Source of the DNA: Candidatus Pullichristensenella excrementipullorum
Lineage (GTDB): Bacteria; Bacillota; Clostridia; Christensenellales; Aristaeellaceae
Length of the DNA: 64,000 nucleotides
NCBI GenBank assembly: GCA_018713365.1
Contig: DVOU01000025.1
Span: 34,309-98,308, forward strand
Reading direction: 5' to 3'
The translations under genes were made by a program, and so were the position numbers. The notes under the pieces were generated by a model that was given only the letters and a program-made list of their open reading frames with translations, was not told the DNA's origin and ran no database searches. Positions 13,268 through 28,392 of this stretch are shown here, in pieces (the stretch's first letter is position 1; every line of letters begins with the position of its first letter).

Positions 13268-13286
13268 AGGCCAAAATACGTTTCGC

Positions 13287-13322: not shown

Positions 13323-14528
13323 TTATTCTTTGTTCTTTTCGCTCCCCCGCCGCGCGGAGAGGGCCATCACCAGCGCGCCGGTGAGCGCGGAGAGCGCGCC
13401 CCAGCGGACGAGGCCGGACCAGAAGCGTATCTCGGCGTATTCCTGCGTGCGGATAAAGATGGGCGCGGCCGCGGCGGAAGTGAGCTGCCAGAAGCGCTCG
13501 GTGATGGAGGAAAGCTCCACCAGCACGTCCGGTATCCACTCGGTGAACACGTACATCGGCTCGATGGCCAGCGTGAGAACGCCGTAGGCGGCGGCGAGCA
13601 GGGCGGCGTAGCCCAGCGCCAGCAGAAGGAAGCGCGGCAGAAGGCCGGGCAGCATGTCGCGGAAGTACTCCCGGCGCAGCCGCGCGCGGATGTCCGCGCT
13701 GAGCCCTGCCGTGCGGCAGTTGAGGCGGCGCAGCAGGTACAGGATCAGGTAAAGGCCGAGGGCGATGGCCAGCGCGCGGGCGACGATGCCGCCGCGCATG
13801 GCCTCCTTGTCCGTGTCGGTAAAGGTACCGCCAGCCTGCCAGTTCTCCGCCGCGTCCTCAAAGGCGCGGGACGCGCCCGACTGCGGCAGGGCGACGCCGC
13901 AGACCTCGACGATTTCCATGGGCAGGCGGTCTTCGGCGGCGCTCGCGTAGGGGATGTAGGCCTGATACTGCTCGTATTCCCCCACCGAGCGGCGGTAGCG
14001 CACCACGCCGATGACCTCGTAGCGCTCTGTACCGATGGTCAGCTCGCGCCCGATGGGGTCGGCGGTGGGAAAGAGTTTGAAGGCCAGCGGTTCGTCGAGG
14101 ACGATGCAGCGGTCGCCGTCTTTCAATTCCTGCTCGGTCATCAGGCGGCCGGAGACGAGGTAGCGCGGGTAGACCGAAAACCAGTTTTCGCCCACCGCCG
14201 TCAACGTCGCCGTGGCGCTGCCGCCCTCGCCGGAGAGGGCGACGCCGTAGTCCCGCGCGGCGATGGAGGACGCCGCAAGGACTTCCAAGAGGTCTTCCTC
14301 CGCGCGCGCCTGCCATGCCTCGCAGAGCTTTTGCAGCGCGCCGCTCTCCTCCTGCTGCGCCGTCTGTTCCTCCTGCCCGGACGGCTGCGGCGCGGCCTCG
14401 TCCGTGGGGGCGACGATGCAGTACTGGAGAACGGAGGGCTGCAGCGCGAGCATGCACAGCCCCGCGGCCATCAACAGCGCGCCCAGCGCCAGCAGCCATT
14501 TGCCGCGCGTTTTCCGCTTCTTTTCCAT
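13323..14528 (-). CDS. membrane protein with a MacB-like periplasmic core domain (ABC permease-like, atypical)
   Basis: 401 aa. It has an N-terminal TM helix, then an extracytoplasmic domain (YLVSGRLMTEQELKDGDRCIVLDEPLAFKLFPTADPIGRELTIGTERYEVIGVV, a MacB_PCD-like signature). Three or four C-terminal TM helices follow. Confidence 0.5.
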   Translation of the reverse strand: MEKKRKTRGKWLLALGALLMAAGLCMLALQPSVLQYCIVAPTDEAAPQPSGQEEQTAQQEESGALQKLCEAWQARAEEDLLEVLAASSIAARDYGVALSGEGGSATATLTAVGENWFSVYPRYLVSGRLMTEQELKDGDRCIVLDEPLAFKLFPTADPIGRELTIGTERYEVIGVVRYRRSVGEYEQYQAYIPYASAAEDRLPMEIVEVCGVALPQSGASRAFEDAAENWQAGGTFTDTDKEAMRGGIVARALAIALGLYLILYLLRRLNCRTAGLSADIRARLRREYFRDMLPGLLPRFLLLALGYAALLAAAYGVLTLAIEPMYVFTEWIPDVLVELSSITERFWQLTSAAAAPIFIRTQEYAEIRFWSGLVRWGALSALTGALVMALSARRGSEKNKE

Positions 14529-14529
14529 A

Positions 14530-15867
14530 TCAGTTCACGTACTCCATGACGGTGGTGTTCTCGCCGATCTCGCGGTCTTCCATGTAGGCAATCTGCATAT
14601 AGCTGAGGTCTTCGGCGACGCTGACGGTGCCCTCGGCCTCAGCCAGCACGGTGACGGACTGCTTCTGTGTGACCAGGCTGTTGACGCCGAAGGCGCTCTG
14701 CGTCTGCTGGACGGTATAGACGTAGCGGTCATCGCCCGCGCCGCGCACGGCGCTGGAGGGGAGCAGCGTGGTGTTGTCGTTTGAGCGGTAGCTGACGCGC
14801 ACGGGGATGTCCTCCGCCAGCATGGCGATGGAGCCGCCCAGATCGCGGATCATGCGGCTGGAGAGTTCGACATCGGCGTAGGTATCGCCGGAAACGGTGA
14901 CGCCGGTGGAATCGACGCTGCCCTCCGAGGTGCCGCCGCGGGCGCTGTCAAAGGTGATGTCCGTGCCGCGGGAGATGGTCAGCGTGGTCTTGCTGGTGTC
15001 GATGCGCAAAACCGGATCCTCCTTCTCCGGGCTGAAGGAGTAGGCGGGACCGGAGGCGTCGAAGGTCTCGCCGGCTTTGACGTTGACCTCGGTGATGTAG
15101 CCATCGTCCGGGGCGGTGACGGTTTGCAGCGTGGAGCGCAGGGCGCGCAGATCGACCATCTGCCCTTCAAAGTCCTTCATCTGCTGTTCGTACTTCTGCT
15201 TATCGACGATGTAGGCGCGCGCCGTTTCGGAGATGTTGTAGCGCTCGGCGGTCTCCATGGCGGCCTCGGCTTCTTTGAGCGCCTGCGCGGCGGCCTCGTG
15301 CGCCGCCCACGCCTCGGTCAGTTCCTCGCTGGCGCCCTCGGGCAGCGTTCCGTTTTCTGCCTTCAGACCCTCGACGGCGAGCAGCGCGTCGCGGGTGACG
15401 CGCGCGTCGAGTTCGGCGTTCTGCGCCTCGGCAAGCGCCGTGTACGCCTCGGCCCAAGCCTCGTCCGTGGGACGCAGGCGTAGGTTGGCGTTCTTGCGCT
15501 CGAGGTCGGCAAGCTGGCCGGCGGCCTCGTTGTAGCTCTGGCGCAGCGTGTCCATGTTCTTTTCATAGTCGGCGATCTCGGCGGTGAAGAGCGTGTCGCC
15601 CTTCTCCACCTCACTGCCGGGCTGCACCTTCACGGATGTGACGGTCAAGGAGACGCCCTGCGCGTTTTCCAGTTTCACCGGCTCGGCGGCGGGAAAGACC
15701 ACCTTGCCGGTCAGTTCCACTTGCTCGGAGAACTTTCCCTGCCGGGGCGTGAGGAGCTTGACCTTGGCGGTGGTGATGGTGCGGATGGTGCCGGAAAAGA
15801 ACATGCACAGCGCCACCACCACCGCGAAGACGATCAGGCCACGAATGGCGTATTTTTTCAGTTTCAT
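14530..15867 (-). CDS. HlyD-family membrane-fusion/adaptor protein (with coiled coil)
   Basis: 445 aa. It has a TM anchor and a lipoyl-like segment (VQPGSEVEKGDTLFTAE). A long Ala/Glu-rich coiled coil follows, then VTAPDDGYITEVNVKAGETF and beta-barrel-like segments. It lies 1 nt from the downstream permease. Confidence 0.6.
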   Translation of the reverse strand: MKLKKYAIRGLIVFAVVVALCMFFSGTIRTITTAKVKLLTPRQGKFSEQVELTGKVVFPAAEPVKLENAQGVSLTVTSVKVQPGSEVEKGDTLFTAEIADYEKNMDTLRQSYNEAAGQLADLERKNANLRLRPTDEAWAEAYTALAEAQNAELDARVTRDALLAVEGLKAENGTLPEGASEELTEAWAAHEAAAQALKEAEAAMETAERYNISETARAYIVDKQKYEQQMKDFEGQMVDLRALRSTLQTVTAPDDGYITEVNVKAGETFDASGPAYSFSPEKEDPVLRIDTSKTTLTISRGTDITFDSARGGTSEGSVDSTGVTVSGDTYADVELSSRMIRDLGGSIAMLAEDIPVRVSYRSNDNTTLLPSSAVRGAGDDRYVYTVQQTQSAFGVNSLVTQKQSVTVLAEAEGTVSVAEDLSYMQIAYMEDREIGENTTVMEYVN

Positions 15868-15879
15868 GCGTCCGTCCCC

Positions 15880-16737
15880 CTATTTGAGTTCCGTGAGCTG
15901 TATGCCGGAGAGTATATCCTTCTGGAAATAGAGATAGATCAGCAGCGCCGGAAGGATGTAGAGCGCCGCGCCGGCAAATTCCACGCCGGAGGGGTTTTCC
16001 GTGAGCTGGTTGAACATCACCGAAAGGGGCATGAGCTGCGTCTGCCCGGCAAGATAGGTCAGCGGCTGTTCCACCAGATTCCAGCAATCGGCAAACGACA
16101 GCGCCACCGCCGCGCCGAGGATGGGGCGGCAGACCGGCAGCGCCACGTGGATGAAGCAGCGGAACGTGCCCGCGCCGTCCACCTCCGCCGCCTCGAGCAG
16201 TTCCCGGGGCAGACCCACCATGAACTGGCGCACGAGGAAGATATAAAAGGGCGCAAAGCAGGTGGGCAGGATGACCGCCCAGGCGGTGTTGAGAAGCCCC
16301 ATGGCCCGCAGCGTGAGTACATTGGGCACCATCGTCACCTGAAAGGGCAAAAGCATCAGCATGATGACGATGAAGAAGATGGCGTCCCGTCCGCGGAACT
16401 TAAAGCGGCTGAGGGCGTAGGCCATGGCGGGGATGACGAGCGCCTGCCCCAGAAGGATGGCCACGGTGTACATGGCCGAGTTGCACAGAAGGCGCAGCAC
16501 CGACACGTCTTCAATGAGGATGTTGTAGTACTGGCTCAAGGAAAACACGCGCGGGGCCAGTTTGATCTCCATCCACACGGAGGCGTCGTAGTTGCCGCGC
16601 GTTTCCATGAACGCCTTGATCTCCTCCGGGGAGAAGAACGAGTAGAGCGCCGTCAGGACGACCGGCAGGAGGATGATGAGCGCCACAAGCGTCAAAAGGG
16701 CGCGGGAAATGACGTGTTTTTTTCGCAGTGTCCGCAT
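15880..16737 (-). CDS. carbohydrate (CUT1-type) ABC transporter permease, MalG-like
   Basis: 285 aa with six predicted TM helices. An EAA-type loop (ELLEAAEVDGAGTFRCFIHVALP) is typical of binding-protein-dependent importer permeases. Confidence 0.8.
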   Translation of the reverse strand: MRTLRKKHVISRALLTLVALIILLPVVLTALYSFFSPEEIKAFMETRGNYDASVWMEIKLAPRVFSLSQYYNILIEDVSVLRLLCNSAMYTVAILLGQALVIPAMAYALSRFKFRGRDAIFFIVIMLMLLPFQVTMVPNVLTLRAMGLLNTAWAVILPTCFAPFYIFLVRQFMVGLPRELLEAAEVDGAGTFRCFIHVALPVCRPILGAAVALSFADCWNLVEQPLTYLAGQTQLMPLSVMFNQLTENPSGVEFAGAALYILPALLIYLYFQKDILSGIQLTELK

Positions 16738-16746
16738 CGCGCCCTC

Positions 16747-17601
16747 CTAATTGAGCCTGTCCTGCAGCCGCTTCTGCATGAAGAACAGCGCGCCGAAGAT
16801 GATAAAGACGATGATGGCGAAGCTGTAGGCTGCGGTGGTGACGTTCTGGTAGTTGAGCTTGCCGAACATATTGTTCATGTAGTTTTGCAGCGTGTAGACG
16901 GCCTCGTCCGGGTAGGCGCCGCCGATGAAATAGACCTCCTTGAAGATCTTGAAGGCGTTGATCCACGACAGCACGAATACGAGAAAGGCGCTGGGCACCA
17001 CCATGGGCAGCGTGATGGAGAACGCCTGGCGGAAAAAGCCCGCGCCCTCCAAACGGGCATATTCATACAAGGGCTCGGGGATGGATTGCAGCGCCGCCAG
17101 AAAGATGACCACGGCAAAGCCGAGGTTTTTCCACACGAACATGAGGATGACCGGCACGCGCAGCGCTGCCCCCTCCAGCCAGGAAACGCGCATAAAGCCC
17201 AGCGACGTGACCAGGCGGTTGATGACGCCGCCATAATCGAACAGCACCAGCCAGATCAGCAGCATCGCCGAGGAGGGCATCAGATAGGGCATGAGGATGC
17301 TGTTGCGGAAGAACGACCCGCCGGGTTTGAGGCGGTTCAAAAGCACGGCGACGATGAAGGAGAGCGCCCACACCAGCGGCGTGCAAATGAGCGACAGTTC
17401 CAAGGTGTTTTTCAGCCCCAGCAGGAACATCTCGTTTTTCCAGATGTTTATGTAATTTTGCAGGCCGACAAAGGCGTTTTTGTAGCTGCCGTCGGTGAGG
17501 CTGTAATAGATGCCGCCGATGAACGGCACGATGTAGAACAGCGTCAGGCCGATGAGGCCCGGCAGCAGGTAGAAAAGCGCCGAGCGCTTGCGGGTAAACA
17601 C
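16747..17601 (-). CDS. carbohydrate (CUT1-type) ABC transporter permease, MalF-like
   Basis: 284 aa. The N-terminus is ALFYLLPGLIGLTLFYIVPFIGGIYYSLTD and the EAA loop is EPLYEYARLEGAGFFRQAFSITLP. Confidence 0.8.
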   Translation of the reverse strand: MFTRKRSALFYLLPGLIGLTLFYIVPFIGGIYYSLTDGSYKNAFVGLQNYINIWKNEMFLLGLKNTLELSLICTPLVWALSFIVAVLLNRLKPGGSFFRNSILMPYLMPSSAMLLIWLVLFDYGGVINRLVTSLGFMRVSWLEGAALRVPVILMFVWKNLGFAVVIFLAALQSIPEPLYEYARLEGAGFFRQAFSITLPMVVPSAFLVFVLSWINAFKIFKEVYFIGGAYPDEAVYTLQNYMNNMFGKLNYQNVTTAAYSFAIIVFIIFGALFFMQKRLQDRLN

Positions 17602-17646
17602 GTTTCTTCCTCCCCCGCGCGGCGGATGCGCGCGTTTCGTATTTTG

Positions 17647-19971
17647 CTACATGCCCTCGAGCATCATCATCTGCAATTTGCCGTCCACGCCCTCAATGAA
17701 CTCGTCGGCGGTGATGAGGCCCTGCGTGAACTGGTTCTGCAATTCGTAGAAGGCGGAGGCGTTATCGCCGCCCATGCCGAGGTTGCGGATGACGATGATC
17801 TGCGGGGCGAAGGCGCGGTAGCGCGCGATGCTCTCCTCGCTGGCCTGCCAGGCGCCGTAACGGAGAAAGTCCGCGCGCACCTTTTCGTATTCGGCGAGGA
17901 TGGCCGCGTAGGCCTGTTTTTCCGCCTCGGTCTCCGCCGCGTCGAGCTGGGCCTGCGCGTCGGCGATCATCTGGTCGTAGGCGGCGAGCATGGTATCGTA
18001 ACTGGGGTTTTTCACCGGCTCGTTTTCCTCCGGGCAGAGCTGGATCTTCAGAAGCGGCTCCATCTCGCGCGCGACGGCCTCCAAAAAGGCGACGGCCTCC
18101 TCGCGATGCTGGGAGAAGGGGTTGACGAAGGCGACGGTCATCTGCGCGGAGAGCTGGCGGCTTCCATCAAAGCCCAGCGGCAGCGGCTGGAACGAGCCCT
18201 GCACGGCGTAGGTTTCGGCGGTGGGGTTGCCGTAGCTGGAAAAGAGGGCGTCGTGCGTGCTTTCGCCGCTGCTGGATGTCCAGCTGTATCCATTCATATC
18301 CTCGGGTTCGGCGAGGCCAAGCGCCGTCCAATCGACCGCTTCGCAGGCGTTGAGCGCGCCGCGGAAGGCCACGGTATCGAACGCCAGTTCGCTTCCGGGC
18401 TGGGAGATGTAGGCCATGTAGCTGGCGATCATCGTATCCAGCAGCATGTAGCGGGCGCTGCCGTAGTCCTCAAAGCCGTCAAAGAGGGTCATGCCCTCGA
18501 CCTCGGCCACCTTCGCCGCCAGCGGCTCGAGGCTTTCAAAGAACGCCTGCCAGGTGGTGGGCACGTCTTCCTCGGTGAGGCCAAGGCGGGCAAAGGCCTC
18601 GGGGTCGTAGCCCATGCTGTCCACGTAAAACTCCACGGGCACGCCCAGGAGTTCGCCATCCTTCACGCAGGCCTCGCGCGCGAAGGGATAGAGGCTGTCT
18701 ATGAAGGCGGACAGTTCCTCGCTCTCTGTCAATTCCGCCATGTAGCCGCGCGAATAGACGGCCTCGTATTCGGCGGAATCGACGCTCAGGCAGTAGATGT
18801 CCACATCCGAGGAGCGGTTCATCATCGCCTGCACCACGTCCTCCACCTGCTCCACCATGACCACGTCCACATCGCCATATTCGGCGGAGAAGGCGTAGTA
18901 GGCGTTGTTGATGGAAGGATTGTAGTTTCTCTGCACGGTGAGGCGGACGTCGGAGCGCAGGGCGGGGTCGGTGTTGCGGCGCACGACGGCCTCGTAGCTG
19001 CCAGTGATGTAATAGCCCTCCGATGTGAGGATGGGGCGCACGTCGTAGGAGGCCTCCACGGGCAGGGAGGCCACGCTCTCGAGCCGCTCCGCGTCCATGC
19101 CGGGCAGGGCCCAGAGTTCGCCGTTCATGGCAAAGTAGAGGGTGTCGTTGTCCGCGCGGTAGACGAGGCCGTCCGGATAGCCCCGGCCCGTGAGCGGCAC
19201 TTCGGCGAGAAGCTCCGCTTCCTCCGCCTCGGGATCGGTCCTGTACAAATTGGCGATGTTGCCATCCTGTGTGTACTGGACGGACAGGGCCAGAAGCAGG
19301 CCGTCCTTGTAGGCGCATATCTCTTCGACGTAGGCGCCCAGACCGAGGTCGGTGGGATAGTAAATCTCGGTATCGCCATCGGTAAGGTCGGTTGTGACGA
19401 TGATGTTGTTGCCGCTCTCATCATAGCTGGTGAAGCAGAGCAGGTCACCCGCGACGAAGGGGCGGTCGCACTGGGCGTAATATTCGTAGTCCGTGCCCTG
19501 GATGATGTCAAACCAGTCAAGTTCGGTGATCTCCTCGCCCACGGAGGCGTTGCCCTCTGCGTCAAATTCCAGCTCGCAGAGCCACGCGCCCTCGCAGGTG
19601 CGGAAGTATTCGGCGTCCTCGCCCTCTCCCTCCGTCTCCTCAAGCATCTCGGTGAGGACGACGCAGGGCCTGCCTTCATAAGCGATGTAGGCGGCGATGT
19701 CGGGATAGAGGGTGGTCTCTTCATCCTCCATCTCCGGCTGCGGGGTCTGGAAGGCGCGGCGCTCGGGGGTATCCGCGCCGGGGGCGAGGGTGTAGACCTC
19801 GTCGTGATAGGTGAACATGTACACCGTGCCATCCGCCTCCACGAGGCCGCGCAGATCCACGCCGCACTGCGCGTCCGCACGCAGAAGGAGGGCGTCGCCG
19901 GGGGCGGCGAGGGCCGTCATGGGCAGCGTCAAAAGCGACAGCGCCGCGAGCAGAGAGAGAAACTTTTTCAT
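17647..19971 (-). CDS. secreted fusion protein: ~330 aa beta-rich N-domain plus family-1-like ABC solute-binding domain (paralog C)
   Basis: 774 aa from the ATG at 19971 (RBS AAAGGAG). The signal peptide is MKKFLSLLAALSLLTLPMTALA/APGDA. The C-terminal ~440 aa look like an extracellular solute-binding protein (..DVDIYCLSVDSAEYEAVYSRGYMAEL..LLGVPVE..TWQAFFESL..). Confidence 0.65.
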   Translation of the reverse strand: MKKFLSLLAALSLLTLPMTALAAPGDALLLRADAQCGVDLRGLVEADGTVYMFTYHDEVYTLAPGADTPERRAFQTPQPEMEDEETTLYPDIAAYIAYEGRPCVVLTEMLEETEGEGEDAEYFRTCEGAWLCELEFDAEGNASVGEEITELDWFDIIQGTDYEYYAQCDRPFVAGDLLCFTSYDESGNNIIVTTDLTDGDTEIYYPTDLGLGAYVEEICAYKDGLLLALSVQYTQDGNIANLYRTDPEAEEAELLAEVPLTGRGYPDGLVYRADNDTLYFAMNGELWALPGMDAERLESVASLPVEASYDVRPILTSEGYYITGSYEAVVRRNTDPALRSDVRLTVQRNYNPSINNAYYAFSAEYGDVDVVMVEQVEDVVQAMMNRSSDVDIYCLSVDSAEYEAVYSRGYMAELTESEELSAFIDSLYPFAREACVKDGELLGVPVEFYVDSMGYDPEAFARLGLTEEDVPTTWQAFFESLEPLAAKVAEVEGMTLFDGFEDYGSARYMLLDTMIASYMAYISQPGSELAFDTVAFRGALNACEAVDWTALGLAEPEDMNGYSWTSSSGESTHDALFSSYGNPTAETYAVQGSFQPLPLGFDGSRQLSAQMTVAFVNPFSQHREEAVAFLEAVAREMEPLLKIQLCPEENEPVKNPSYDTMLAAYDQMIADAQAQLDAAETEAEKQAYAAILAEYEKVRADFLRYGAWQASEESIARYRAFAPQIIVIRNLGMGGDNASAFYELQNQFTQGLITADEFIEGVDGKLQMMMLEGM

Positions 19972-20013
19972 TGTTCGCTCCTTTCTGCGGCCCATGGGCC
20001 GCCCCGGGATGAT

Positions 20014-20160
20014 TCAATATCCTTCCTGCGCCATCATCTGCAACGAGCTTTCCAGTCCGGCGACGAAGGCGTCGGCGGTGAGCGCGCCAGAGGGTTTCGC
20101 GGGCGATGCGGGGCGGAGACGGCGGCGGAGGCCGCGCTCATGCTCATTTCGCCGTCGCCG
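20014..20160 (-). pseudogene. decayed 3' fragment of a fourth SBP-fusion paralog
   Basis: The minus strand translates to ..GDGEMSMSAASAAVSA, then a frameshift, then AKPSGALTADAFVAGLESSLQMMAQEGY*. This aligns with the C-termini of the three intact paralogs (e.g. ..SGESDMAAYEAAQQFKAGALSADGFIRQLDRMLSMQ.. and ..ITADEFIEGVDGKLQMMMLEGM*). Confidence 0.6.
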
Positions 20161-20265
20161 GGCGTTTCTCCTGCCGTTTCGCCGTTTCAGGACACGCGCC
20201 TGTCAGGGGGCTTCAAAGGCCGCGCGGCCGCGATGAAGCTGCGCCGCGTCCCCGTCGGTCGTTTG

Positions 20266-22617
20266 TTACATTCCTTCTTTCATCATCATTTGCAGTTTGC
20301 CATCCACGCCGCGGATGAACTCGTCGGCGGAGATCATGCCGTCCGTGTACTGCTGCTGAAGCTCGTAGAACGCCTCGCTGTTCTCGCCGCCCATGCCGAT
20401 GTTGCGCTTGACGCGGACGCTGGGCGCGTATTCGCGGTAGATGGCGATGCTCTCCTCGCTGGCGGTCCAGGCATCGTATTTGAGGTAATCCTCGCGGTAC
20501 TGCTTGTATTCTTCAACGAGTTCCTCGTAAGCCTGCCGCTCTTCCTCCGTTTCGGCCTTGGCGAGCTGTTCCTCAGCGTCGGCGACGCTCTGGTCAAAGC
20601 CCTTCAGGTTATCCTCGTACCACGGGCTGCGCACCGGCTCGTTCTCGTCCGGGCAGAGGTGGATGCGGGTGAGGGCGTCCAGCTCTTCGGTCACCGTTTC
20701 AAGGAAATCAATGGCCGTGTCGCGGTGCGCAGAGAAGGGGTTGACGAAGGCGACGTAGAGCGTGGCGGAGATGTGCGGCTGCTCGCCCTCGGCGAAGCTG
20801 AGCAGCAGCGGCCTGAAAGCGGCGCGCGCAGTGTAGCCATCCGCCGAGACGTTGGTATAGGGGGAATAGAGGGTGTTGTGTTCCGTCCGGCCGCCGATCT
20901 CGATGACGCTGACGCCGCCGCTGAGGCCGTCGTCCACGTCCGGCGCGGGAAGGCCCAAATTCGACCAGTCCACGGCCTCATAGGCGGCCAGCGCGGCGCG
21001 GAAGGCCTCGGTATCGAAGGCGAACTCGTTCTCCGGCAGAGAGATGTAGTCCATGTAGTCGGCGATCATGGCGCTCAAAAAGGTCATGCGGGCGGTCTCG
21101 TAATCCGAAAAACCTTCAAAGAGCGTCATGCCCGGTTCTTCGGCGATCTTGGCCGCCAGGGAGCCGAGGCTTCCAAAGAACTCCGCCCATGTTTTCGGCA
21201 CGTCTTCCTCGGTAAGGCCGAGGCGGGCGAAGGCCTCCGGGTCGTAGCCGCGGCCGTCCATGAAGAGCGTCACCGGCACGGCGACGATCTCGCCATCCTT
21301 TTCGCAGACCTCGCGCGCGAAGGGATAGCAATTTTCAAGGAACGCGGAGATGGCTTCGCTTTCCGTCAGCTCGGCCATGTAGCCGCGCGAATAGACGGCG
21401 TCGAACTCCGCGGAATCGACGTTCACGCAGTAGACGTCCACGTCCGTCGAGCGGTTCATCATCGCCTGCACCACGTCTTCCGTGCGCTGGAGCATGACCA
21501 CTTCCACATCGCCGCGGGTCTCGCCAAAGGCGTAGTAGGCCTCGGTGATGGCGCTGCCGACCGTGTCCTGCACGGTGATGCGCGTCTGGGCGCGCTGCGC
21601 AGGGTCGGTGTTGCGGCGGACGAGCGCCGCGTAGTCGGCGGCGATGTAAAAGCCGTCCTCGGTGACGATGGGCGCGGTGGAACCTATATAGCTGACGGGG
21701 ATCTCGGCCACGCGCTGGAGGGCAGAGGCGTCCATGCCGGTCATGGCGCAGATCTCGCCATCCATGATGCAGTAAACGGTGTCGGTGTCGGCGCGGTAGG
21801 CAAGGCCGGTGGCGGAGGCGTTTTCGCCCGTGGCCAGCGTGAGAAGCTCGGTCGCCTCCTCGTTTTCCACGTCGATGGCATAGAGTTTGACGGCGCTTTC
21901 GTCCTCGCCCCACTCGGTTTCCAGCACCAGAAGCTGGCCATCCTTGTAGGCGCAGAAGGAATCGAGGGAGATCTCCGCGCCGAGGTCGGCGGGATAGTAC
22001 ACGTCCGTATCGCCGTCGGTAAGGTCCGTGGCGACGAGCACGCGCTCGTAGCTTTCGTCATAGCTGGCGAAGTAGAGCGTATCGCCCACGACGGTGGGCC
22101 GGTCGCACTGGGCGAGGTATTCGGAATCGCCGCCGCCCTGCACCAGATCGGACCAGTCCAGCTCCGTAAGCTCTTCGCCCACGGCGGCCTTGCCGTCTTC
22201 CAGCGTCAGTTCGCAGAGCCAGACGCCCTCGACGGTGCTGAAGCTCATGCGTTCTTCGCCCACGCCCTCGTATTCCGTCTCCATCCCGGCAACGATGACG
22301 CAGGGACGGCCTTCGTAGGCGATGAGCGCGGAAACGCTGCGGCTGACGGCGGTATCTTCATCGTCGTCCCCATCGTCCACGGTGCTGCTGAGGGGAAAAT
22401 CGTAGTGGGTGGGCTTGGTTTCGCCGCTGGCGAAGACATAGAGGCCGTCGTAGGTGAGCGCGTAGAGGTCGCCGTCCACCTCCGCCAAGCCGCAGACGTT
22501 GCTGTTGTAGCCATCCTCGCCCTGGCGGAGCAATACGGCGTCGCCGGGCGCGGCGAGGGCGCTGACGGGCAGAAGGATGACAGTGAGCATGAGGATAAGG
22601 GAAAGAAGTTTTTTCAT
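20266..22617 (-). CDS. secreted fusion protein: beta-rich N-domain plus solute-binding domain (paralog B)
   Basis: 783 aa from the ATG at 22617 (RBS AGGAGAA). The signal peptide is MKKLLSLILMLTVILLPVSALA/APGDA. It is collinear with paralog C over its full length, with high similarity by eye. Confidence 0.65.
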   Translation of the reverse strand: MKKLLSLILMLTVILLPVSALAAPGDAVLLRQGEDGYNSNVCGLAEVDGDLYALTYDGLYVFASGETKPTHYDFPLSSTVDDGDDDEDTAVSRSVSALIAYEGRPCVIVAGMETEYEGVGEERMSFSTVEGVWLCELTLEDGKAAVGEELTELDWSDLVQGGGDSEYLAQCDRPTVVGDTLYFASYDESYERVLVATDLTDGDTDVYYPADLGAEISLDSFCAYKDGQLLVLETEWGEDESAVKLYAIDVENEEATELLTLATGENASATGLAYRADTDTVYCIMDGEICAMTGMDASALQRVAEIPVSYIGSTAPIVTEDGFYIAADYAALVRRNTDPAQRAQTRITVQDTVGSAITEAYYAFGETRGDVEVVMLQRTEDVVQAMMNRSTDVDVYCVNVDSAEFDAVYSRGYMAELTESEAISAFLENCYPFAREVCEKDGEIVAVPVTLFMDGRGYDPEAFARLGLTEEDVPKTWAEFFGSLGSLAAKIAEEPGMTLFEGFSDYETARMTFLSAMIADYMDYISLPENEFAFDTEAFRAALAAYEAVDWSNLGLPAPDVDDGLSGGVSVIEIGGRTEHNTLYSPYTNVSADGYTARAAFRPLLLSFAEGEQPHISATLYVAFVNPFSAHRDTAIDFLETVTEELDALTRIHLCPDENEPVRSPWYEDNLKGFDQSVADAEEQLAKAETEEERQAYEELVEEYKQYREDYLKYDAWTASEESIAIYREYAPSVRVKRNIGMGGENSEAFYELQQQYTDGMISADEFIRGVDGKLQMMMKEGM

Positions 22618-22658
22618 CGTTCTGTTCTCCTGCATAGCATAAATATTTGTGGGCGCGG

Positions 22659-24980
22659 TCAGGCATTTTCGCGCCGCTGCATGGAAAGCATGCGGTCGAG
22701 CTGGCGGATGAAGCCGTCCGCGGAAAGCGCCCCGGCCTTGAACTGCTGCGCCGCCTCATAGGCGGCCATGTCGCTCTCGCCGGAAAAGAGGTTGCGGGCA
22801 AGGAGCATGCATGTGGTGCGCTGGCGGTAGGCGGCGAGGGCGGAGGCGCTGACCTTCCAGCCGTCTTCGGCGAGATAGTCCGCCCTGGCCTGTTCGTAGA
22901 AGTCGATCATCTCCGCGAAGGTCTGTCTGTCCTCCCCCTCGGCGGCTTCGAGCGCCGCGCGGGCGTCGGCGAGGGAGCGGTCATAATCGGCGAGGTCGGC
23001 CGCGAAGGTGTCCAGCGGCACCGGCTCGTCATACGCCGGGGAAAGTTCGAGGCGGGTGACCGCGTCCATGGCCCCGGCGAGCGTTTCCACAAAGGCGCGC
23101 GCCTCGTCCGGGTGGGCGGAGAAGGGGTTGACGAAAGCCACGGTGACGTCGGCGGCGATGGTCGGGCCAACGTCCCCGGAAAAGCCCAGCGGCAGCCATT
23201 GCAGGCCGGACGCGGCCATGTCGCTCTGCGCGCTGACGTCAGCATAGGCGGCAAAGAGTACGCGACTTGCGCCGTCTCCGGCGAAGGGGGCGTCGTCCGC
23301 TTCATACGCGAAGGCCTGTTCGTCGCTGAGGAGGCCGATATTTGCCCAGTCCACCGCCGCGAAGGCTTCCAGCGCGGCGCGGAACGCCGGCGTGTCGTAG
23401 CCGTCCTCTGCTTGGGAGATGTGGGCGGCGTATTCGGCGAGCATGGCGTCAAAGAGTACATCGCGCAGAGACTCCCAGCCCTGCTGCGGTTCGAAGAGAT
23501 AAAGCCCGGCGCGCTCGGCGGCTTCGGAAAGCGATGCAAGGCTTAAGAAAAACTCCGGCCAGGTCGCGGGGAGGTCTTCTTCCGTCAGGCCCAGTTTGGC
23601 AAGCGCGCCCGCGTCCCAGGAGAGCGGGGCGTTGAAGCCGACCTCCACGGGCAGGGCGACCACCGCGCCGCCCACCGTGCAGGCATCCCGCACGAAGGGA
23701 TAGCAGCTCTCGACAAACGAACATGTGTTCGTAAGTCCGTCCAGAGACGGCAGGAAGCCGCGCGCGCGAAGGGCTTCGTACTGCGGAAGCGAGGCGGAGA
23801 AGCAATAGACGTCGATCTCCGGGGAGCGGCCGAGCATGGCTTCCAGCACATCGCCGGACTGCTGGACGAGGGTCATTTCCACATCGCCGCGCTCCGCGCC
23901 AAAGGCGTAGGCGGCGTTTTCCACGTTTTCCGAGTGGCCGGACAGCACGGCAAGGCGCACGGAGGCGCGTTGCGCGGGGTCGGTATCGCGGCGCACGAGG
24001 GTGAAAAAGTCGGCGGCGGCGTAGAGGCCGCTGGCGGTGAGGACGGCCTGTCCGCGCGGCTGATCGAGCGGGAAACCGGTCACGGACTCAGGATGGGAGG
24101 CATCCAAGCCCGGCAGCGCCCAGATCTGGCCGTCCAAGAGGTAGTAGAGCGTGTCGTTTTCCGCCCGGTAAGCGGGCGCTTCGAGGTAGCCTTCGCCGGT
24201 GGCGAGGGCGCAAAGTTCGTCCGTCGCGCCGCTGGCGGGGTCGAAGCGGCAGATGCGAGAGATGTTGCCATCGCTCCCCCACTCGCGGGTGATGCAGAGC
24301 AGTTCCCCATCGCGGTAGGGCGTGAGCAGGGCGTCCTCGCCGGGCAGCTCGTCCGCGTAGTAGAGGGCGACGGAGCCGTCGGTCAGGTCGGCGATGGCGT
24401 AAAATTCGTTGCCGCTCTCGTCATAGCTCTTGCAGGCGAGGAAGTCGCCCGAGGCGCAGAGGCCGTCCGCCTCGGCGAGGTAGGCGTCGTCCGCGCCGCC
24501 GAGGATGAGGTCTTCCCAGTCAAGGGCGCAGACCTCCGCGCCGGCGGTCGCGGTATCGCCCGCAAGGTCGAGCGCGTAGAGGGAAACGCCGTCGATGGCG
24601 GTCTCCCAGATGCTCTCGCCGTCTTCCTCGTAGATGGTCTGCTGGGTCTGCGCGGCGAGCAGGCAGAGCTTTCCGCTGCGCGCGACGATGGCGACGGCGT
24701 CCAGTGAGCTGGTCGTTTCCACGCCGTTTGCTTCCTCTGTAACGCCCGGCAGGGAAAGCTCGTAGCGCGCAGGTTCGGCGCTTTCGCCCTCGAAGGCGTA
24801 GACCGCGTCGTAGGTGAGGGCGTAGAGCGTATCGCCGGCGGCGGCGATGTTTTGGATGTTGCCGGAAAAGCCGTCCGCGCCGTCGCGCAGCAGCACAGCG
24901 TCCGCGGGGGCGGCGTGGGCCGCCGGTATACAGGCAAAGAAAAGCGTAAAAACGAGCAACAGGGAAAGTCCCCTTTTCAT
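22659..24980 (-). CDS. secreted fusion protein: beta-rich N-domain plus solute-binding domain (paralog A, most divergent)
   Basis: 773 aa (RBS AGGAGGG). The signal peptide is MKRGLSLLLVFTLFFACIPAAHA/APADA. It has the same two-domain layout as paralogs B and C. Confidence 0.65.
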   Translation of the reverse strand: MKRGLSLLLVFTLFFACIPAAHAAPADAVLLRDGADGFSGNIQNIAAAGDTLYALTYDAVYAFEGESAEPARYELSLPGVTEEANGVETTSSLDAVAIVARSGKLCLLAAQTQQTIYEEDGESIWETAIDGVSLYALDLAGDTATAGAEVCALDWEDLILGGADDAYLAEADGLCASGDFLACKSYDESGNEFYAIADLTDGSVALYYADELPGEDALLTPYRDGELLCITREWGSDGNISRICRFDPASGATDELCALATGEGYLEAPAYRAENDTLYYLLDGQIWALPGLDASHPESVTGFPLDQPRGQAVLTASGLYAAADFFTLVRRDTDPAQRASVRLAVLSGHSENVENAAYAFGAERGDVEMTLVQQSGDVLEAMLGRSPEIDVYCFSASLPQYEALRARGFLPSLDGLTNTCSFVESCYPFVRDACTVGGAVVALPVEVGFNAPLSWDAGALAKLGLTEEDLPATWPEFFLSLASLSEAAERAGLYLFEPQQGWESLRDVLFDAMLAEYAAHISQAEDGYDTPAFRAALEAFAAVDWANIGLLSDEQAFAYEADDAPFAGDGASRVLFAAYADVSAQSDMAASGLQWLPLGFSGDVGPTIAADVTVAFVNPFSAHPDEARAFVETLAGAMDAVTRLELSPAYDEPVPLDTFAADLADYDRSLADARAALEAAEGEDRQTFAEMIDFYEQARADYLAEDGWKVSASALAAYRQRTTCMLLARNLFSGESDMAAYEAAQQFKAGALSADGFIRQLDRMLSMQRRENA

Positions 24981-25000
24981 CCCTCATCCCTCCTGTGTCT

Positions 25001-26155
25001 CTATTCTGTCAGCCCGCCCTCCGTTTCCGGCGCGGCAGCGTCGTGGCTGTCGCGCGTGTAGACCAGCACGGTCATGCCCAGACGAACGCTCTCGTCGGGG
25101 TCGAAATCCACGTAGGCGGTGTAGGTCGGTTCCTCGCCGGCAGTGGAAGCGGTGGTCTGGCCGTCCTCCCCGGCGGCGGGCGCGTTGGCGCTCAGGTAGG
25201 AGATGCCGGTGATGGTCCCTTCCAACCGCGTCATGCGCTGCAGATCCCAGTTGAACTCGATATCGACCTTCATGCCCTCGCGCACGAGGCCAAGGTCGCT
25301 CTCGCGCACCTGCATCTCGATGCGGGTGGCGTCGTCCGGGTAGATGGAAAGGAGTTTGCCGCCTTTTTCCACAGACGCGCCCGCGCCGGCATCCACGCTG
25401 GCGACGATGCCGCTTGTTTCGCAGACGATCGCGTTGCCGGGGGCGTAGAGGCCGTCGAGGCCGCCGGTGACGGTCTCGAAGAGCAGTTCGCCGCGCTCGA
25501 CGAAGTCTCCGTTCTGAACGTGCATTTTGAGGATGCTGCCGCTGCCCTTGATGGGCACCACCTTGGCCGCCGCCACCGTGCCCCGGCCGATGCGGGAGGA
25601 CTCGGCGTAGTCGCTGCGGCGGTAGATGCTCACCGTTTCGGCGATGTAGAACTCGCCGCCGGTGACTTCCACGTTGTACTCGCCGGCCTTTTCGCCCATG
25701 CCGGTGACCACGCCGGTGCCGCGGTGGCTGCCGTCGGAGGTGCATTTCAAATACACCGTCTCGCCGACGTGGATGAACTTGTTCTCGCTGCGGTTGTAGG
25801 CCTTTTCCGTGGAGGCGGCGATGGTGTACTTGTTGGTCGGCTCGATGAACAGCACGCCGCCGTAGCGCTCGGAAACGCCCTCGGTGGCGTCGCCCTCGCG
25901 GCCAAAGACGCCGGAAATCTTGCCCTCCACGTCGGCGTAGACGCGCGTGGTCTGGATGCTGGCGAGCGCCTGCCCCGGCTGCACGCGGTCGCCGACGCGG
26001 ACGTTGACTTCATCCATTACACCGCCAAAGGGGGCAAGCACGAACTGGGCGTCGCCGCCGGTGACCACGCCGTCAAAGACCATTTCCGCCAGACCCGCGC
26101 CGCACAAAAGCGCCAGCATGAGCAGGATGGCAGACAAGCGTCTCATGTTCCTCAT
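25001..26155 (-). CDS. HlyD-like adaptor / barrel-sandwich protein without an obvious coiled coil
   Basis: 384 aa with a signal/anchor MRRLSAILLMLALLCGAGLA. It has two lipoyl-like motifs (VRVGDRVQPGQALASI and HVQNGDFVERGELLFE). The start overlaps the upstream stop (ATGA). Confidence 0.5.
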   Translation of the reverse strand: MRNMRRLSAILLMLALLCGAGLAEMVFDGVVTGGDAQFVLAPFGGVMDEVNVRVGDRVQPGQALASIQTTRVYADVEGKISGVFGREGDATEGVSERYGGVLFIEPTNKYTIAASTEKAYNRSENKFIHVGETVYLKCTSDGSHRGTGVVTGMGEKAGEYNVEVTGGEFYIAETVSIYRRSDYAESSRIGRGTVAAAKVVPIKGSGSILKMHVQNGDFVERGELLFETVTGGLDGLYAPGNAIVCETSGIVASVDAGAGASVEKGGKLLSIYPDDATRIEMQVRESDLGLVREGMKVDIEFNWDLQRMTRLEGTITGISYLSANAPAAGEDGQTTASTAGEEPTYTAYVDFDPDESVRLGMTVLVYTRDSHDAAAPETEGGLTE

Positions 26156-28392
26156 GCGTTCTCCTCCATTTCCAGAGCGGCCGCCATTTCCGGCGTCCAG
26201 GCGCCGAAGGCGACGTCCAGAAGTTCCGCGGGGCCGTAGTAGAGGTCGTAGTAATACATGGGCTGCGTTTCGTCGTCCGTGAGGGGGTAGACCTCCTCCT
26301 CGACCGTGGTCTCGACCACCATCTCGCCGATGGCCGCGTCCAGCACCGAGCCGGACATCCAGATCGTGTAATCGAACTTGCGGGTGGAGACGCCGGCGGA
26401 TTTGAGGTCTGTATAGGCGGTGCCGGCGGTGAAGCCCGCCGTGGGGAAGGCGGTCACGTGGTCGCCCACCTGCAAGACCACGTATTCGATGCCGCTGTTG
26501 AACAGCAGGCGGTGGACCACGCCGTTGAAGCGCCAGACGTAGGCGTAGTCTCCAGAGATGGCGGGGTCGATCTGGGCGGTGAGCAGCAGCGTGTCGGGCG
26601 CGTCCAGTTCGGCGTGGGCGTCGTCTTCGCCCTCTTCGTCCTTATGCGCCTCCCACGGCTGCAGACCCTCGTCCGTCCAGCGCGCGAGGGCGGCGGTGAA
26701 GACCGGCTCGTAGGGCGTGGGCGGCTCGAAGCCCTCGGCGCTGTCCAGTTCCAAGGTCAGCGCCAGCGGCGCGTCGCCAAGGGTGAGGCGGTGCATCGGC
26801 TCCTCGGGCAGGATGAGCTGCACCTCGCCGTAGGGCGTGGTGTCCACATCCTCATCGCCGGTGTGCTTGATGGACGGTTCGCCGTCTCCCCCACCGCCGC
26901 CACCGCCGCCGCCACCGCCGCCGAAGTCAGGATAGGTGATGGGCGCGGGGATCTCAAAATCGGTGGGGTATTCGATGATGTTCCCGGCCACGTCGCGGGC
27001 CATGAGCATGCCCTGCGCGTAGACCTCGCCGAGCTTGCCGGTGTGGACGTAGTCGCCGGTCTCAGAGGCGGGCACCCACGTCTGGCCGCCATCGACGCTG
27101 AAGGCGTCCAGACCGCTGAGCGCGTCCTCGGAGGTGAGGATGAACTGCGGCTGGCCCTCGGAGACGATGGAGGCGGTGAGGTAGGCGGGCGGGGTGAGGT
27201 CGATCTTCAGATCGTAGCGCGTGGAGAGGGCGCAGACGTCGCCAATGGGATCGAGGATGGCGAAGCGCAGCGAATACTCGCCCTCGTCTTTGGAGGTATA
27301 GGTATTGCCGGAGAGGATGATGAAGCGCTCGTCATAGGCGACGACGGCGTAGTTGTAGCCGCGCGCACCCTCCGGGATGCCGGAGAGCGTGAAGGACGGA
27401 GCCTCGCACGACCACACGCCCGGCATGTAGTTCTCTGCCGCCACGAACACATCCAGCTCCACCGGGCCGGGCTTGGGCGTCGGCGTGGGCGTGGGACCCT
27501 GCGGCTTTTCCTCCACCCACACGTAGAGCCAGACCTCCGGCGCGGGTTCGGCTTCCCCTTCTTCATTCAGGGGCGCGGGCTGGGCGGGGTCGTATTCCGA
27601 GACCTTGACGACGAACTTGTCCTTCTCAAACACCGTTTCGTCGGGCAGGAAGGTGGTCATGACCACGTCGTTGGGCGTCTTGTCCTTCACGCGCATCACT
27701 TCTTCCGAGCGGATGAAGATGGTGGCCTCGGTGTTGGCGTCGAAGTCCTGAATGAGGTCTTCGAGCTTGCCGGCGATGACCTGCGTGGGATCGTCGGGGT
27801 TGACCATCCACGCCTCGGCGTCCTCGGGGATGCCCGGGGCGGGCGTGATGGAGGGGCCGGGCGTGATGGAGGGGTCTAGGGTGATGGACGCACCCGGGGT
27901 GACGGACGCACCCGGGGTGACGGAGGTGTCCGGCGTGACGGACGTATCCGGCGTCACCGACGTATCCGGCGCGGTGGTCTCGCCATCCCCGCTCTGCTCG
28001 GGCGGCGCGGAGGGCGGCGTCTCCGTCACGTTTCCGCTCTGCTCGGGCGGCGCGGACGGCGGCGTTTCCGCTGCGTTACCACTGTCCTCCGGCGGCGCGT
28101 CGTTTGCCGGCGCTTTGGAGGCCTCGACGGACGGCTTCGGCGCTTCGGTGGGTGCTTCCGTGGGCGGTTTCGGCGCTTCCGTCGGCGGCTTGGGCGCTTC
28201 TGTCGGCGGCTTGGGCGCTTCTGTCGGCGGCTTGGGCGCTTCCGTCGGCGGCTTGGGCGCTTCCGTGGGCGGCGCGGCGGCGGGCTGCGGCGTCTCCACG
28301 GGCGGCGCGGGCGGCTGGCCCTCCCCTCCCTCGGCGAAGGCGCATGTGGTCAGCAGGCAGATGGCCAGCAGGGCGGCGAGCAGGCGTTTCAT
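26152..28392 (-). CDS. secreted repeat-rich protein (Pro-rich tandem repeats, Ig-like segment, poly-Gly tract); hypothetical
   Basis: 746 aa from the ATG at 28392. The signal peptide is MKRLLAALLAICLLTTCAFA. It carries six PTEAPKP units, seven 6-aa (T/A)S(V/I)TP(D/G)-type units, and a D.TPP..SGLD..DGGQTW Ig-like motif. A GGGGGGGGGGGGDGE tract is also present. It is the first gene of the operon. Confidence 0.65.
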   Translation of the reverse strand: MKRLLAALLAICLLTTCAFAEGGEGQPPAPPVETPQPAAAPPTEAPKPPTEAPKPPTEAPKPPTEAPKPPTEAPKPPTEAPTEAPKPSVEASKAPANDAPPEDSGNAAETPPSAPPEQSGNVTETPPSAPPEQSGDGETTAPDTSVTPDTSVTPDTSVTPGASVTPGASITLDPSITPGPSITPAPGIPEDAEAWMVNPDDPTQVIAGKLEDLIQDFDANTEATIFIRSEEVMRVKDKTPNDVVMTTFLPDETVFEKDKFVVKVSEYDPAQPAPLNEEGEAEPAPEVWLYVWVEEKPQGPTPTPTPKPGPVELDVFVAAENYMPGVWSCEAPSFTLSGIPEGARGYNYAVVAYDERFIILSGNTYTSKDEGEYSLRFAILDPIGDVCALSTRYDLKIDLTPPAYLTASIVSEGQPQFILTSEDALSGLDAFSVDGGQTWVPASETGDYVHTGKLGEVYAQGMLMARDVAGNIIEYPTDFEIPAPITYPDFGGGGGGGGGGGGDGEPSIKHTGDEDVDTTPYGEVQLILPEEPMHRLTLGDAPLALTLELDSAEGFEPPTPYEPVFTAALARWTDEGLQPWEAHKDEEGEDDAHAELDAPDTLLLTAQIDPAISGDYAYVWRFNGVVHRLLFNSGIEYVVLQVGDHVTAFPTAGFTAGTAYTDLKSAGVSTRKFDYTIWMSGSVLDAAIGEMVVETTVEEEVYPLTDDETQPMYYYDLYYGPAELLDVAFGAWTPEMAAALEMEENA
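27842..27967 (-). repeat. in-frame 18-nt tandem repeats (about 7 units)
   Basis: The + strand units are ggcgtgatggaggggccg / ggggtgacggacgcaccc / ggcgtgacggacgtatcc and similar. They encode DTSVTPDTSVTPDTSVTPGASVTPGASITLDPSITPGPSITP. Confidence 0.8.
28139..28270 (-). repeat. in-frame 21-nt tandem repeats (about 6 units, several identical)
   Basis: The + strand unit gtcggcggcttgggcgcttc(c/t) repeats back to back. It encodes PTEAPKP six times. Confidence 0.85.

Follow-up and report, generated by a model that had tools for sequence, protein, structure and literature searches.

We have analyzed a 64-kb window (64,000 nucleotides, ~64% G+C) from the genome of Candidatus Pullichristensenella excrementipullorum (contig DVOU01000025.1), which contains a block of genes combining the parts of an ATP-binding cassette (ABC) importer with those of a MacB-type pump. 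Translation of the window identified nine open reading frames (ORFs) on the minus strand, designated here g1 to g9, that fill positions 13323–28392. In the direction of transcription they encode a repeat-rich secreted protein (g9), an HlyD/MacA-type adaptor (g8), three paralogous receptors (g7, g6, and g5), MalF-like and MalG-like permeases of the CUT1 type (g4 and g3), a membrane-anchored adaptor (g2), and a MacB-type membrane protein (g1). A block of nine packed minus-strand genes had been proposed in a first-pass annotation of this DNA; all nine ORFs were found where it had placed them, its domain calls are all supported by profile matches of the Pfam/NCBIfam type (those for g2 only below the curated cut-offs), and the block holds, as it had noted, neither a regulator nor a glycoside hydrolase. 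A distinction is drawn between ABC importers and tripartite pumps of the MacB type, which differ in their folds, directions, and partners, and adaptors and MacB-like proteins of this kind are otherwise known only from efflux pumps. Here, components of the two are linked in all of the related loci that were amenable to inspection. The hybrid ABC system encoded by the locus is real, conserved, and widespread, and the literature searched (one library) yielded no account of an importer operon that includes adaptor and MacB-fold partners.

Conservation and distribution of the gene arrangement

The linkage of the two sets of parts was examined by searching metagenomes for relatives of the permease, of which the best 80 of 286 were inspected. 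All 39 of the loci with at least 3.6 kb of downstream sequence carry homologs of g3, g2, and g1, and among these best 80 relatives none with enough downstream sequence is without g2/g1. A scan of one genome per species, seeded with the receptor alignment, recovered 12 species-level loci, in which the genes follow the order g9, g8, one to four receptors, g4, g3, g2, g1 wherever the contig allowed. The succession of permease pair, adaptor, and MacB-like gene is also found in about ten other contexts of 39–66% G+C. The core order is kept on contigs of 39, 53, 56, 61, and 63% G+C that have unrelated flanks; those contigs that encode distant g1 members (27–30% identical; 39, 53, and 56% G+C) carry the MalF, MalG, adaptor, and MacB-like genes in order, and the start/stop overlaps of the adaptor and MacB-like genes are kept in distant loci. 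The 39/39 linkage and the retention of gene order in genomes with unrelated flanks indicate that the arrangement is not accidental, and the supposition of a fortuitous adjacency fails decisively, the genes being co-conserved across very distant genomes.

The conserved core of the system consists of four genes, which encode both permeases, the g2 adaptor, and the MacB-like protein g1. Hence, the nine-gene unit of the first-pass annotation holds for its core, while its other members vary: receptor genes are present in 0 (L017 and L020) to 4 (L002) adjacent copies, g8 is found in most loci at a variable position (downstream of g1 in L016 and L021), and g9 is confined to one clade. Across the related loci identity amounts to 60–99% for the permeases, 29–97% for the adaptor, 27–92% for the MacB-like protein, and 20–98% for the receptors, the most divergent of which share just 20–30%.

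The system is not a single-genome curiosity, as at least ~200 clusters (50% identity) of the MacB-like subunit exist; in an exhaustive profile search g1 emerged as the type of a discrete family, with 219 such clusters at E ≤ 1e-30, almost all of them full length at 370–420 amino acids (aa). Its occurrences come from human-gut and chicken-gut metagenomes and from other JGI metagenome samples (source not checked). Many loci between L032 and L067, with a ~71%-identical permease, lie on contigs labeled as human-gut metagenomes, and the matching MacB-like protein cluster (P0140) has 1968 member sequences, which indicates that the system is common in the human gut as in the chicken. The source annotations describe its proteins only as "ABC transporter permease," "substrate-binding protein," or "carbohydrate ABC transporter substrate-binding protein."

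None of the contexts examined showed a glycoside hydrolase, a sugar kinase, or a regulator of the LacI/AraC type beside the module. In two loci (L016:3009–4780 and L019:2925–4696; L016 has 56% G+C) an ECF sigma factor gene lies directly upstream of the receptor-permease-adaptor-MacB-like module and is followed by a gene for a 395-aa protein, for which a weak match to DUF4179 (anti-sigma-type) was obtained in L016. A low-G+C clade (L017:367–6309 and L020:4634–10630; 39% in L017) carries the four-gene core without an adjacent binding-protein gene, and here the core is followed by a gene for a 510-aa secreted protein with a weak bacterial Ig (Big_6) match in L017.

Properties of the encoded proteins

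Both permeases match BPD_transp_1 above the Pfam cut-off (g4, 1.3e-16; g3, 5.3e-14). The family models UgpA (4e-26) and UgpE (2e-21) match g4 and g3, respectively, as do models for MalF/MalG/GlcT/GlcU, and in profile comparisons with the PDB the nearest relatives are AlgM1 (4.7e-18), SugA, and MalF for g4 and SugB (7e-16), AlgM2, and MalG for g3. The EAA loops read from the translations, EYARLEGAGFFRQAFSITLP in g4 and EAAEVDGAGTFRCFIHVALP in g3, fit the EAA-x3-G-x9-I-x-LP coupling loop that is the docking site of a MalK-type ATPase. Seven core residues of the g4 loop (E180, A182, L184, E185, G186, A187, and P199) are invariant in 9/9 aligned orthologs, and this permease is 60–99% identical in all related loci. 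The locus therefore encodes two MalF/MalG-type BPD_transp_1 subunits with intact coupling loops, as CUT1 importers do.

The three receptors had been annotated as solute-binding fusion paralogs of ~780 aa, a description that our results bear out. They are fusions of ~775 aa (773–789 aa) in which an all-beta N-terminal domain is joined to a MalE-like binding domain and a helical tail; g7, for example, shows a signal peptide, the N-terminal all-beta domain, the MalE-like domain, and C-terminal helices (here and elsewhere, signal peptides and membrane anchors were assigned by visual inspection of the translated sequences). Identity among the paralogs is 38–55% (g7 with g5 and g6, 38–39% over the full length; g6 with g5, 55%), and the ortholog of g6 in L002 is 90% identical. 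A Pfam match to SBP_bac_8 is present in g5. Its AlphaFold2 model, with a mean predicted local distance difference test score (pLDDT) of 88.5 and a predicted template modeling score (pTM) of 0.86, comprises the all-beta domain (residues 35–341), a MalE-like CUT1 binding-protein fold (~345–660), and the helical tail (661–782), which ends in a family-wide LQMMxxEG(M/N) motif. The top Foldseek matches of the model are MalE3, the MalE of Streptomyces scabiei, and other sugar-binding proteins at ~1e-10, and profile searches of the PDB gave YcjN (2.6e-8) along with many other sugar-binding proteins. SBP_bac_8 was matched in 17 and SBP_bac_1 in 8 of 36 members of the receptor family. As the fold search with the whole g5 model is dominated by MalE matches, the nature of the beta domain is indicated by its strand pattern in the model and by weak Beta-prop_KIB1-4 matches in three of the 36 members, which suggest a propeller-like domain. 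On the evidence of the g5 model, the receptors contain the MalE-fold binding protein of a CUT1 importer, fused to two extra domains.

The receptors differ from other binding proteins of single-membrane bacteria in having no membrane tether: by eye, a canonical lipobox cysteine is absent from 14/14 receptor N-termini, which instead carry Sec-type signal peptides ending at A-x-A-like sites. The tail motif (D.kLqMM..EG[M/N/Q]) is kept in receptors with as little as 20% overall identity (those of the window, L002, L009, L012, L013, L015, L016, and L018), and within the Pullichristensenella-type clade the mature N-terminus, APGDAxLLR, is near-invariant just after the signal-peptide cleavage site. 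These conserved ends may be docking handles by which the untethered 85-kDa receptors are retained.

A fourth receptor has been lost from this genome. The single larger gap of the block (~270–294 nt, at 19996–20265, between g6 and g5), in which a pseudogene fragment had been noted, holds the last 25 codons of a fourth paralog and a 121-nt fragment; nothing else of the paralog is left. By tblastn this remnant is 92% identical to residues 739–763 of an intact paralog (L002:7691–9982). The presence of the intact gene in L002, a 92%-identical relative, indicates a ~2.2-kb deletion in this genome, which is seen in the blastn comparison with L002, and the loss is a recent one.

The protein g1 had been called permease-like with a MacB-type periplasmic core domain. 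The core-domain call stands (MacB_PCD, 4e-16 in Pfam; MacB and YknZ core domains at 3e-13 to 1e-11 in profile searches of the PDB), and the resemblance to an FtsX permease is one of fold and topology, not of sequence. In the AlphaFold2 model (mean pLDDT 83.3) a first transmembrane (TM) helix (TM1, residues 2–28) is followed by the core domain (34–246) and three helices (248–284, 289–329, and 362–400), giving the four TM helices, with the core domain between TM1 and TM2, of type VII ABC proteins. All 47 significant (top) Foldseek matches are to MacB, Spr0695, LolC/E, YbbP, HrtB, or YtrF; the best, to MacB (5gko), is full-length with 7.8e-15 over 404 columns, at template modeling scores of only 0.44–0.47. 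No match to PF02687 (FtsX) is present in g1 or among the Pfam domains precomputed for the listed members of its family, the hhalign comparison with an alignment of FtsX permeases aligned just residues 17–216, and TM2–4 of g1 display no detectable FtsX sequence similarity. The cytoplasmic N- and C-termini comprise ~10 residues each, and g1 has neither a fused nor an adjacent ATPase. An extracytoplasmic PxYxFPEWIP segment (324–337) between TM3 and TM4 is invariant and has low model confidence, as expected for an interface. An adaptor partner is encoded immediately upstream, g2 being separated from g1 by 1 nt in the window and overlapping it by 8–11 nt in distant loci. Two members of the g1 family (P0199 and P0213; ~555–565 aa) possess a ~170-aa cytoplasmic C-terminal extension, which in P0199 matches SCP2_2 (2.3e-8), a sterol-carrier, lipid-binding-type fold and not an ATPase.

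Two proteins had been called HlyD-like, and the profile models bear on them unequally. The protein g8 matches HlyD_3 (1.3e-22; 81 bits, cut-off 22.2), HlyD_D23 (1.8e-12; 47.4 bits, cut-off 30), and Biotin_lipoyl_2 (36.1 bits, cut-off 29.8), and its profile matches in the PDB are LipC (2.5e-9), MacA (1.6e-7), and Spr0693 (6e-7). It has a cleavable-looking signal peptide, and the insert at the usual site of the alpha-hairpin is Gly/Thr/Val/Tyr-rich and beta-like without a coiled-coil-like composition, so that g8 looks like an HlyD/MacA-type adaptor without a hairpin. Its identity across loci is 50–94%, with very many invariant columns. For g2 the E-values are significant (RND_mfp, 8.7e-10; EmrA, 5e-9; MdtN, 1e-7) but all lie below the curated cut-offs (for RND_mfp, 38 bits vs. 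94.9), so that the split lipoyl and beta-barrel domains of membrane-fusion proteins, evident in g8, are recognized in g2 at the level of E-values, and its assignment as an adaptor is the weaker of the two. Biotin_lipoyl halves are present in g2 by Pfam, and EmrA (3e-4) and MacA (3.5e-3) are its profile matches in the PDB. The lipoyl half-motifs (~75–95 and ~249–272) flank a ~150-aa Ala/Glu/Leu/Lys-rich insert, presumed from this composition to be a long alpha-hairpin, and are followed by barrel and membrane-proximal-like domains. Its N-terminal TM helix, juxtamembrane segment, and C-terminal columns are invariant at 29–50% overall identity.

In the remaining protein, g9, a Sec-type signal peptide is followed by a tandem-repeat linker of ~190 aa that is rich in Pro/Thr; a middle region and a poly-Gly run come next, and a conserved module of ~170 aa forms the C-terminus. 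The g9 gene contains tandem arrays of 21-, 45-, and 18-nt units besides the poly-Gly run. Searches of Pfam, NCBIfam, and PDB sequences with g9 yielded low-complexity matches alone. The C-terminal module, found solely directly upstream of g8 in the Pullichristensenella-type clade, is kept in L012, whose protein has BspA-type leucine-rich repeats in place of the N-terminal part.

No ATPase gene accompanies the system. The absence of a Walker-A ATPase from the block, reported in the first-pass annotation, extends to the window as a whole, where all frames are devoid of a Walker-A motif paired with LSGGQ; likewise, 711 kb of related metagenome loci contained no ORF with a Walker-A plus signature motif, and the related loci examined have no gene for an ABC ATPase next to the module. 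A lone ATPase near one related operon (L012:19047–19805) is part of a separate phosphonate-type transporter. The absence had been considered unusual, which is true of one half of the system. In known MacB/FtsX/Lol systems the ATPase is fused or encoded next door, and its lack is accordingly unusual for a MacB-fold protein. For the CUT1 half it is ordinary, because CUT1 importers of firmicutes commonly share one "multitask" ATPase, e.g., MsmX, and many of their operons are without an ATPase gene (PMC7658222).

Organization of the locus and its flanking genes

The features of the locus are listed in Table 1. Apart from the gap holding the receptor remnant, the intergenic distances within the block are 1, 12, 9, 45, 23, and 20 nt, and g9 and g8 overlap by 4 nt (ATGA, the start of g8 lying in the stop of g9). 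The strong terminator that had been proposed for the end of the block corresponds to a hairpin of 12 pairs, 10 of them G-C, with a folding energy of −26.8 kcal/mol (z = −4.1), beside which a T-run is clear on the plus strand and weaker on the minus strand; it is likely to be the terminator for both g1 and the convergent sortase gene. Another hairpin, at 17616–17634 between g5 and g4, was considered as a regulatory element and rejected, since it is no better than shuffled sequence (z = 0.44). The sole promoter-like site on the operon strand (29275–29248) lies ahead of the SDR-family gene, which may be co-transcribed with the block. This gene is also upstream of g9 in L004, and in L012 with a NAGPA gene between; because it is missing from this position in L010, and is thus not upstream of g9 in every relative, it lies outside the conserved core.

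Table 1. Coordinates of the hybrid ABC locus and of neighboring features in the 64-kb window.
Feature	Position	Strand	Remarks
g1, MacB-type membrane protein	13323..14528	-	401 aa
g2, membrane-anchored adaptor	14530..15867	-	445 aa
g3, MalG-like CUT1 permease	15880..16737	-	285 aa
g4, MalF-like CUT1 permease	16747..17601	-	284 aa
g5, receptor paralog 1	17647..19971	-	774 aa from MKKF...; ORF extends to 19995
Remnant of deleted fourth receptor paralog	20017..20091	-	Last 25 codons plus stop
g6, receptor paralog 2	20266..22635	-	789 aa; likely start 22617
g7, receptor paralog 3	22659..24980	-	773 aa
g8, HlyD/MacA-type adaptor	25001..26155	-	384 aa
g9, repeat-rich secreted protein	26152..28392	-	746 aa
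G+C-rich hairpin, likely terminator for g1 and sortase	13285..13312		Between convergent genes
SDR-family gene	28508..29212	-	adh_short 9.6e-57; 115 nt upstream of g9
Possible transcription-unit extension (SDR gene plus promoter-like site)	28508..29275	-	Promoter scan
SpoIVA	10623..12158	-	Flanking gene
Sortase	about 12236..13267	+	Long Pro/Thr/Ala-rich linker; converges on operon terminator
Bacterial small signal recognition particle (SRP) RNA	58214..58314	+	Rfam RF00169, 68.2 bits

The window is matched best by chicken-gut metagenome-assembled genomes of Candidatus Pullichristensenella, a genus in which a protein 100% identical to g5 is recorded. The presence of SpoIVA identifies the host as a spore-forming Firmicute. 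A sortase gene adjoins the operon only in the close relatives L002, L004, and L006, and none of the nine products has an obvious C-terminal LPXTG signal as judged by eye. The region upstream of the SDR gene (29348–32732 on the plus strand and 32842–36716 on the minus strand) encodes a DUF2975 protein, a VanZ-like protein, and threonyl-tRNA synthetase, and a RodA/FtsW-PBP2 pair lies further out. No defence-system match was returned by PADLOC for g1, g2, g5, g8, or g9. Three ORFs considered as flanking genes (29321–30322, 30705–32798, and 10596–12011) were rejected as spurious antisense or off-frame readings with Ala/Arg/Gly/Gln-rich nonsense translations in DNA of 64% G+C, and an ORF of 2346 aa on the plus strand (15721–22761), antisense to g2–g6, is regarded as an artefact with an Ala/Gly/Arg-rich translation. 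Several other ORFs of 300–700 aa near the block are also spurious products of the high G+C content, which poses a risk for ORF-based annotation.

Possible functions of the hybrid system

By the features compared here, the system is a member of the CUT1 importer family, except that its receptors have no tether and no ATPase gene is linked to it. It resembles the MsmX/MsmK/MsiK-dependent CUT1 importers (the MalEFGK2, LpqY-SugABC, and AlgM1M2SS-AlgQ class) in its two BPD_transp_1 permeases with canonical EAA loops and in the MalE-fold binding domains encoded upstream, several of which can feed one permease pair. In contrast to these importers, its receptors are double the normal size, with the extra beta domain and conserved helical tail and without a lipoprotein anchor; the adaptor and the MacB-fold protein are obligatory operon partners; the hydrolases, sugar kinases, and LacI/AraC-type regulators of such importers are not seen near the module; and the permeases are unusually conserved, with at least 60% identity across very distant hosts.

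In part the system also works like MacAB, but it does not belong to that family, as it lacks both the FtsX signature and an ATPase of its own. The succession of an adaptor gene and one encoding a four-helix MacB-core protein is likewise found in MacAB-TolC, in Spr0693-0694-0695 of Streptococcus pneumoniae, and in YknXYZ of Bacillus subtilis, and the best matches of g1 (MacB, YknZ, and Spr0695) and those of g8 and g2 (MacA, Spr0693, EmrA, and LipC) belong to such systems. Unlike them, it has no fused or adjacent ATPase, a TM2–4 region not recognizable as FtsX, an extra conserved extracytoplasmic segment between TM3 and TM4 of g1, and two different adaptors, one without a hairpin, and its genes sit in an importer operon. 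The fold of g1 is shared with the type VII systems FtsEX, LolCDE, BceAB, YtrEF, and YbbAP, as would be the principle of a core domain acting on an outside partner rather than forming a pore, but each of these has its own ATPase and none is linked to type I permeases or binding proteins. In the Mce/Mla-type lipid importers two YrbE/MlaE permeases are combined with several MCE binding proteins that are paralogs of one another and with accessory membrane proteins, while the ATPase (MceG) is in some cases unlinked. The present system would follow the same overall plan, in which a permease pair, paralogous binding proteins outside the cytoplasm, accessory membrane proteins, and an ATPase from another locus build an envelope-spanning importer; however, there is no homology, the folds of permeases and binding proteins being different, and a hetero-oligomeric tunnel of fixed composition is unlikely here, given receptor numbers between 0 and 4.

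Our favored, though still tentative, reading of these results is that the locus encodes a binding-protein-dependent ABC importer of the CUT1 type that has permanently recruited a MacAB-like module outside the membrane and is energized by an ATPase acting in trans. Within this reading it is near-certain that the genes form one functional unit, moderately likely that the unit serves import, and speculative how its scaffold is arranged. A shared ATPase dimer of the MsmX/MsmK/MalK type, encoded elsewhere, would dock on the EAA loops and power the permeases. The receptors would be non-lipidated, fast-evolving, and interchangeable specificity modules that deliver related ligands, probably glycans or glycoconjugates, to the permeases; that they feed a constrained core in this way is suggested by the slow evolution of the permeases and the fast evolution of the receptors, by the receptor copy number of 0–4, and by the fresh deletion in the window. 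The adaptor g2, probably a ring as in MacA or Spr0693, would stand on the g1 core domains, in the way of MacA on MacB and Spr0693 on Spr0695, beside or around the permeases, and the g2/g1 scaffold would either hold and organize the untethered receptors or make a conduit through the inner wall zone. Coupling of scaffold and permeases could occur via the invariant TM/juxtamembrane segment of g2 and the PxYxFPEWIP segment of g1, both of which, together with the conserved tail and N-terminus of the receptors, are otherwise unexplained and would be consistent with sites of contact between the proteins of a larger complex. The device would be extended outward by g8 and g9 in the Pullichristensenella clade, with g9 capturing ligands at the cell surface through its Pro/Thr linker and a swappable binding domain. 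A structural precedent is provided by the model of Spr0693-0694-0695, which has a 6:2:2 stoichiometry and a hexameric adaptor tube extending ~154 Å toward the wall (PMC5768738).

Several points weigh against this importer reading. The search for an ATPase was confined to the window and the related loci; a physical association of the halves, inward transport, and the existence of a ligand are presumed; and g2 falls below the curated cut-offs of every adaptor model. An 85-kDa receptor is much too large for the inner channel of the known adaptor rings, so that a "retention cage" needs another geometry. The clade of L017 and L020 has zero adjacent receptor genes, and the neighbors of the module are atypical for a dietary-glycan importer, consisting instead of ECF sigma/anti-sigma genes (L016 and L019), a two-component system (L013), DeoR (L015), and housekeeping genes. 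The lack of a hydrolase, kinase, or regulator, the ECF pair in one clade, and the receptor-less clade keep both an envelope role and a cycle of two transporters in contention.

In the former case, which we regard as rather unlikely, an importer-type motor of permeases and trans-acting ATPase would drive conformational changes through the g1 core domain and the adaptors outside the membrane, in the mode of FtsEX, LolCDE, and BceAB, and the receptor fusions would be carriers or adaptors and not uptake receptors; such a machine might extract or hand over a lipid-linked or wall component, control a wall enzyme, assemble or display g9, or sense envelope stress. The fold of g1, which by Foldseek is that of the mechanotransmission ABC proteins (reviewed in PMC5985334), speaks for it, as do the ECF sigma and DUF4179 anti-sigma genes directly upstream in L016 and L019, the M23 peptidase, beta-lactamase-fold protein, and polysaccharide flippase encoded near the module in L013, the glycosyltransferases and LtaS-like sulfatase in L017, and the sortase, RodA, and PBP2 of the window, along with the fact that glycoside hydrolases and sugar kinases nowhere adjoin the module and that one clade (L017 and L020) is without an adjacent receptor. 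These flanking genes, however, vary by locus and are possibly coincidental, the receptor contains a complete and confidently modeled sugar-binding-protein fold, and g1 has no ATPase of its own for mechanotransmission. To our knowledge, moreover, all characterized systems in which type I permeases and EAA loops are combined with binding proteins of the MalE fold are importers.

Less probable still is the presence of two cooperating transporters, in which g1 with an unlinked ATPase of the FtsE/YknY/LolD type and g2 (and g8) would form a MacAB-like exporter, the CUT1 half would import, and both would be co-regulated as legs of one cycle, e.g., with an agent exported and its product re-imported. 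The order of g2 and g1 mirrors that of macA and macB, with translational coupling, the four-helix g1 has a basic cytoplasmic TM2-TM3 loop of ~30 residues that could hold a coupling helix, and permeases and ATPases on separate chains are normal in this superfamily, as in Spr0694-0695 (PMC5768738). Such an ATPase is nevertheless absent beside g1 in the window, in the related loci, and in the 711 kb of metagenome loci, when it is adjacent or fused in the known MacB/FtsX/Lol systems; TM2–4 of g1 lack detectable FtsX similarity, its cytoplasmic termini are as short as noted above, and the C-terminal domain that some family members do carry is SCP2, nothing related to an ATPase. The most improbable account by far is that an ordinary CUT1 importer lies next to a decayed MacAB-like remnant by historical accident and without a functional link. 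Each half alone does resemble a known kind of transporter, but the co-occurrence in 39/39 loci, the order and overlaps kept across genomes of 39–66% G+C with unrelated flanks, the clear purifying selection and invariant motifs of g1 and g2, and the failure to find, in the best 80 of 286 permease relatives, any with enough downstream sequence that is without g2/g1 are such that chance adjacency is effectively excluded.

The earlier suggestion of a wall-spanning apparatus for capture/import or surface assembly is compatible with these results. It is also possible, although we advance this with some doubt, that the locus represents an unrecognized class of ABC machine in single-membrane gut Clostridia, in which type I permeases, an ATPase-less subunit of type VII (MacB fold), and adaptor rings form one supercomplex. 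This could be either the first "tripartite importer," in which a bulky ligand is drawn across the wall zone from giant receptors that have no tether, or an importer-type motor reused to drive surface mechanotransmission. If the two halves do form one complex, the system would present a new use of an adaptor ring in a bacterium lacking an outer membrane, give a novel role to a MacB-fold protein that has no ATPase, and reveal how a transporter can be served by untethered binding proteins of very large size. Abundant genes of the gut Clostridia that are now labeled only in generic terms would gain a function as well.

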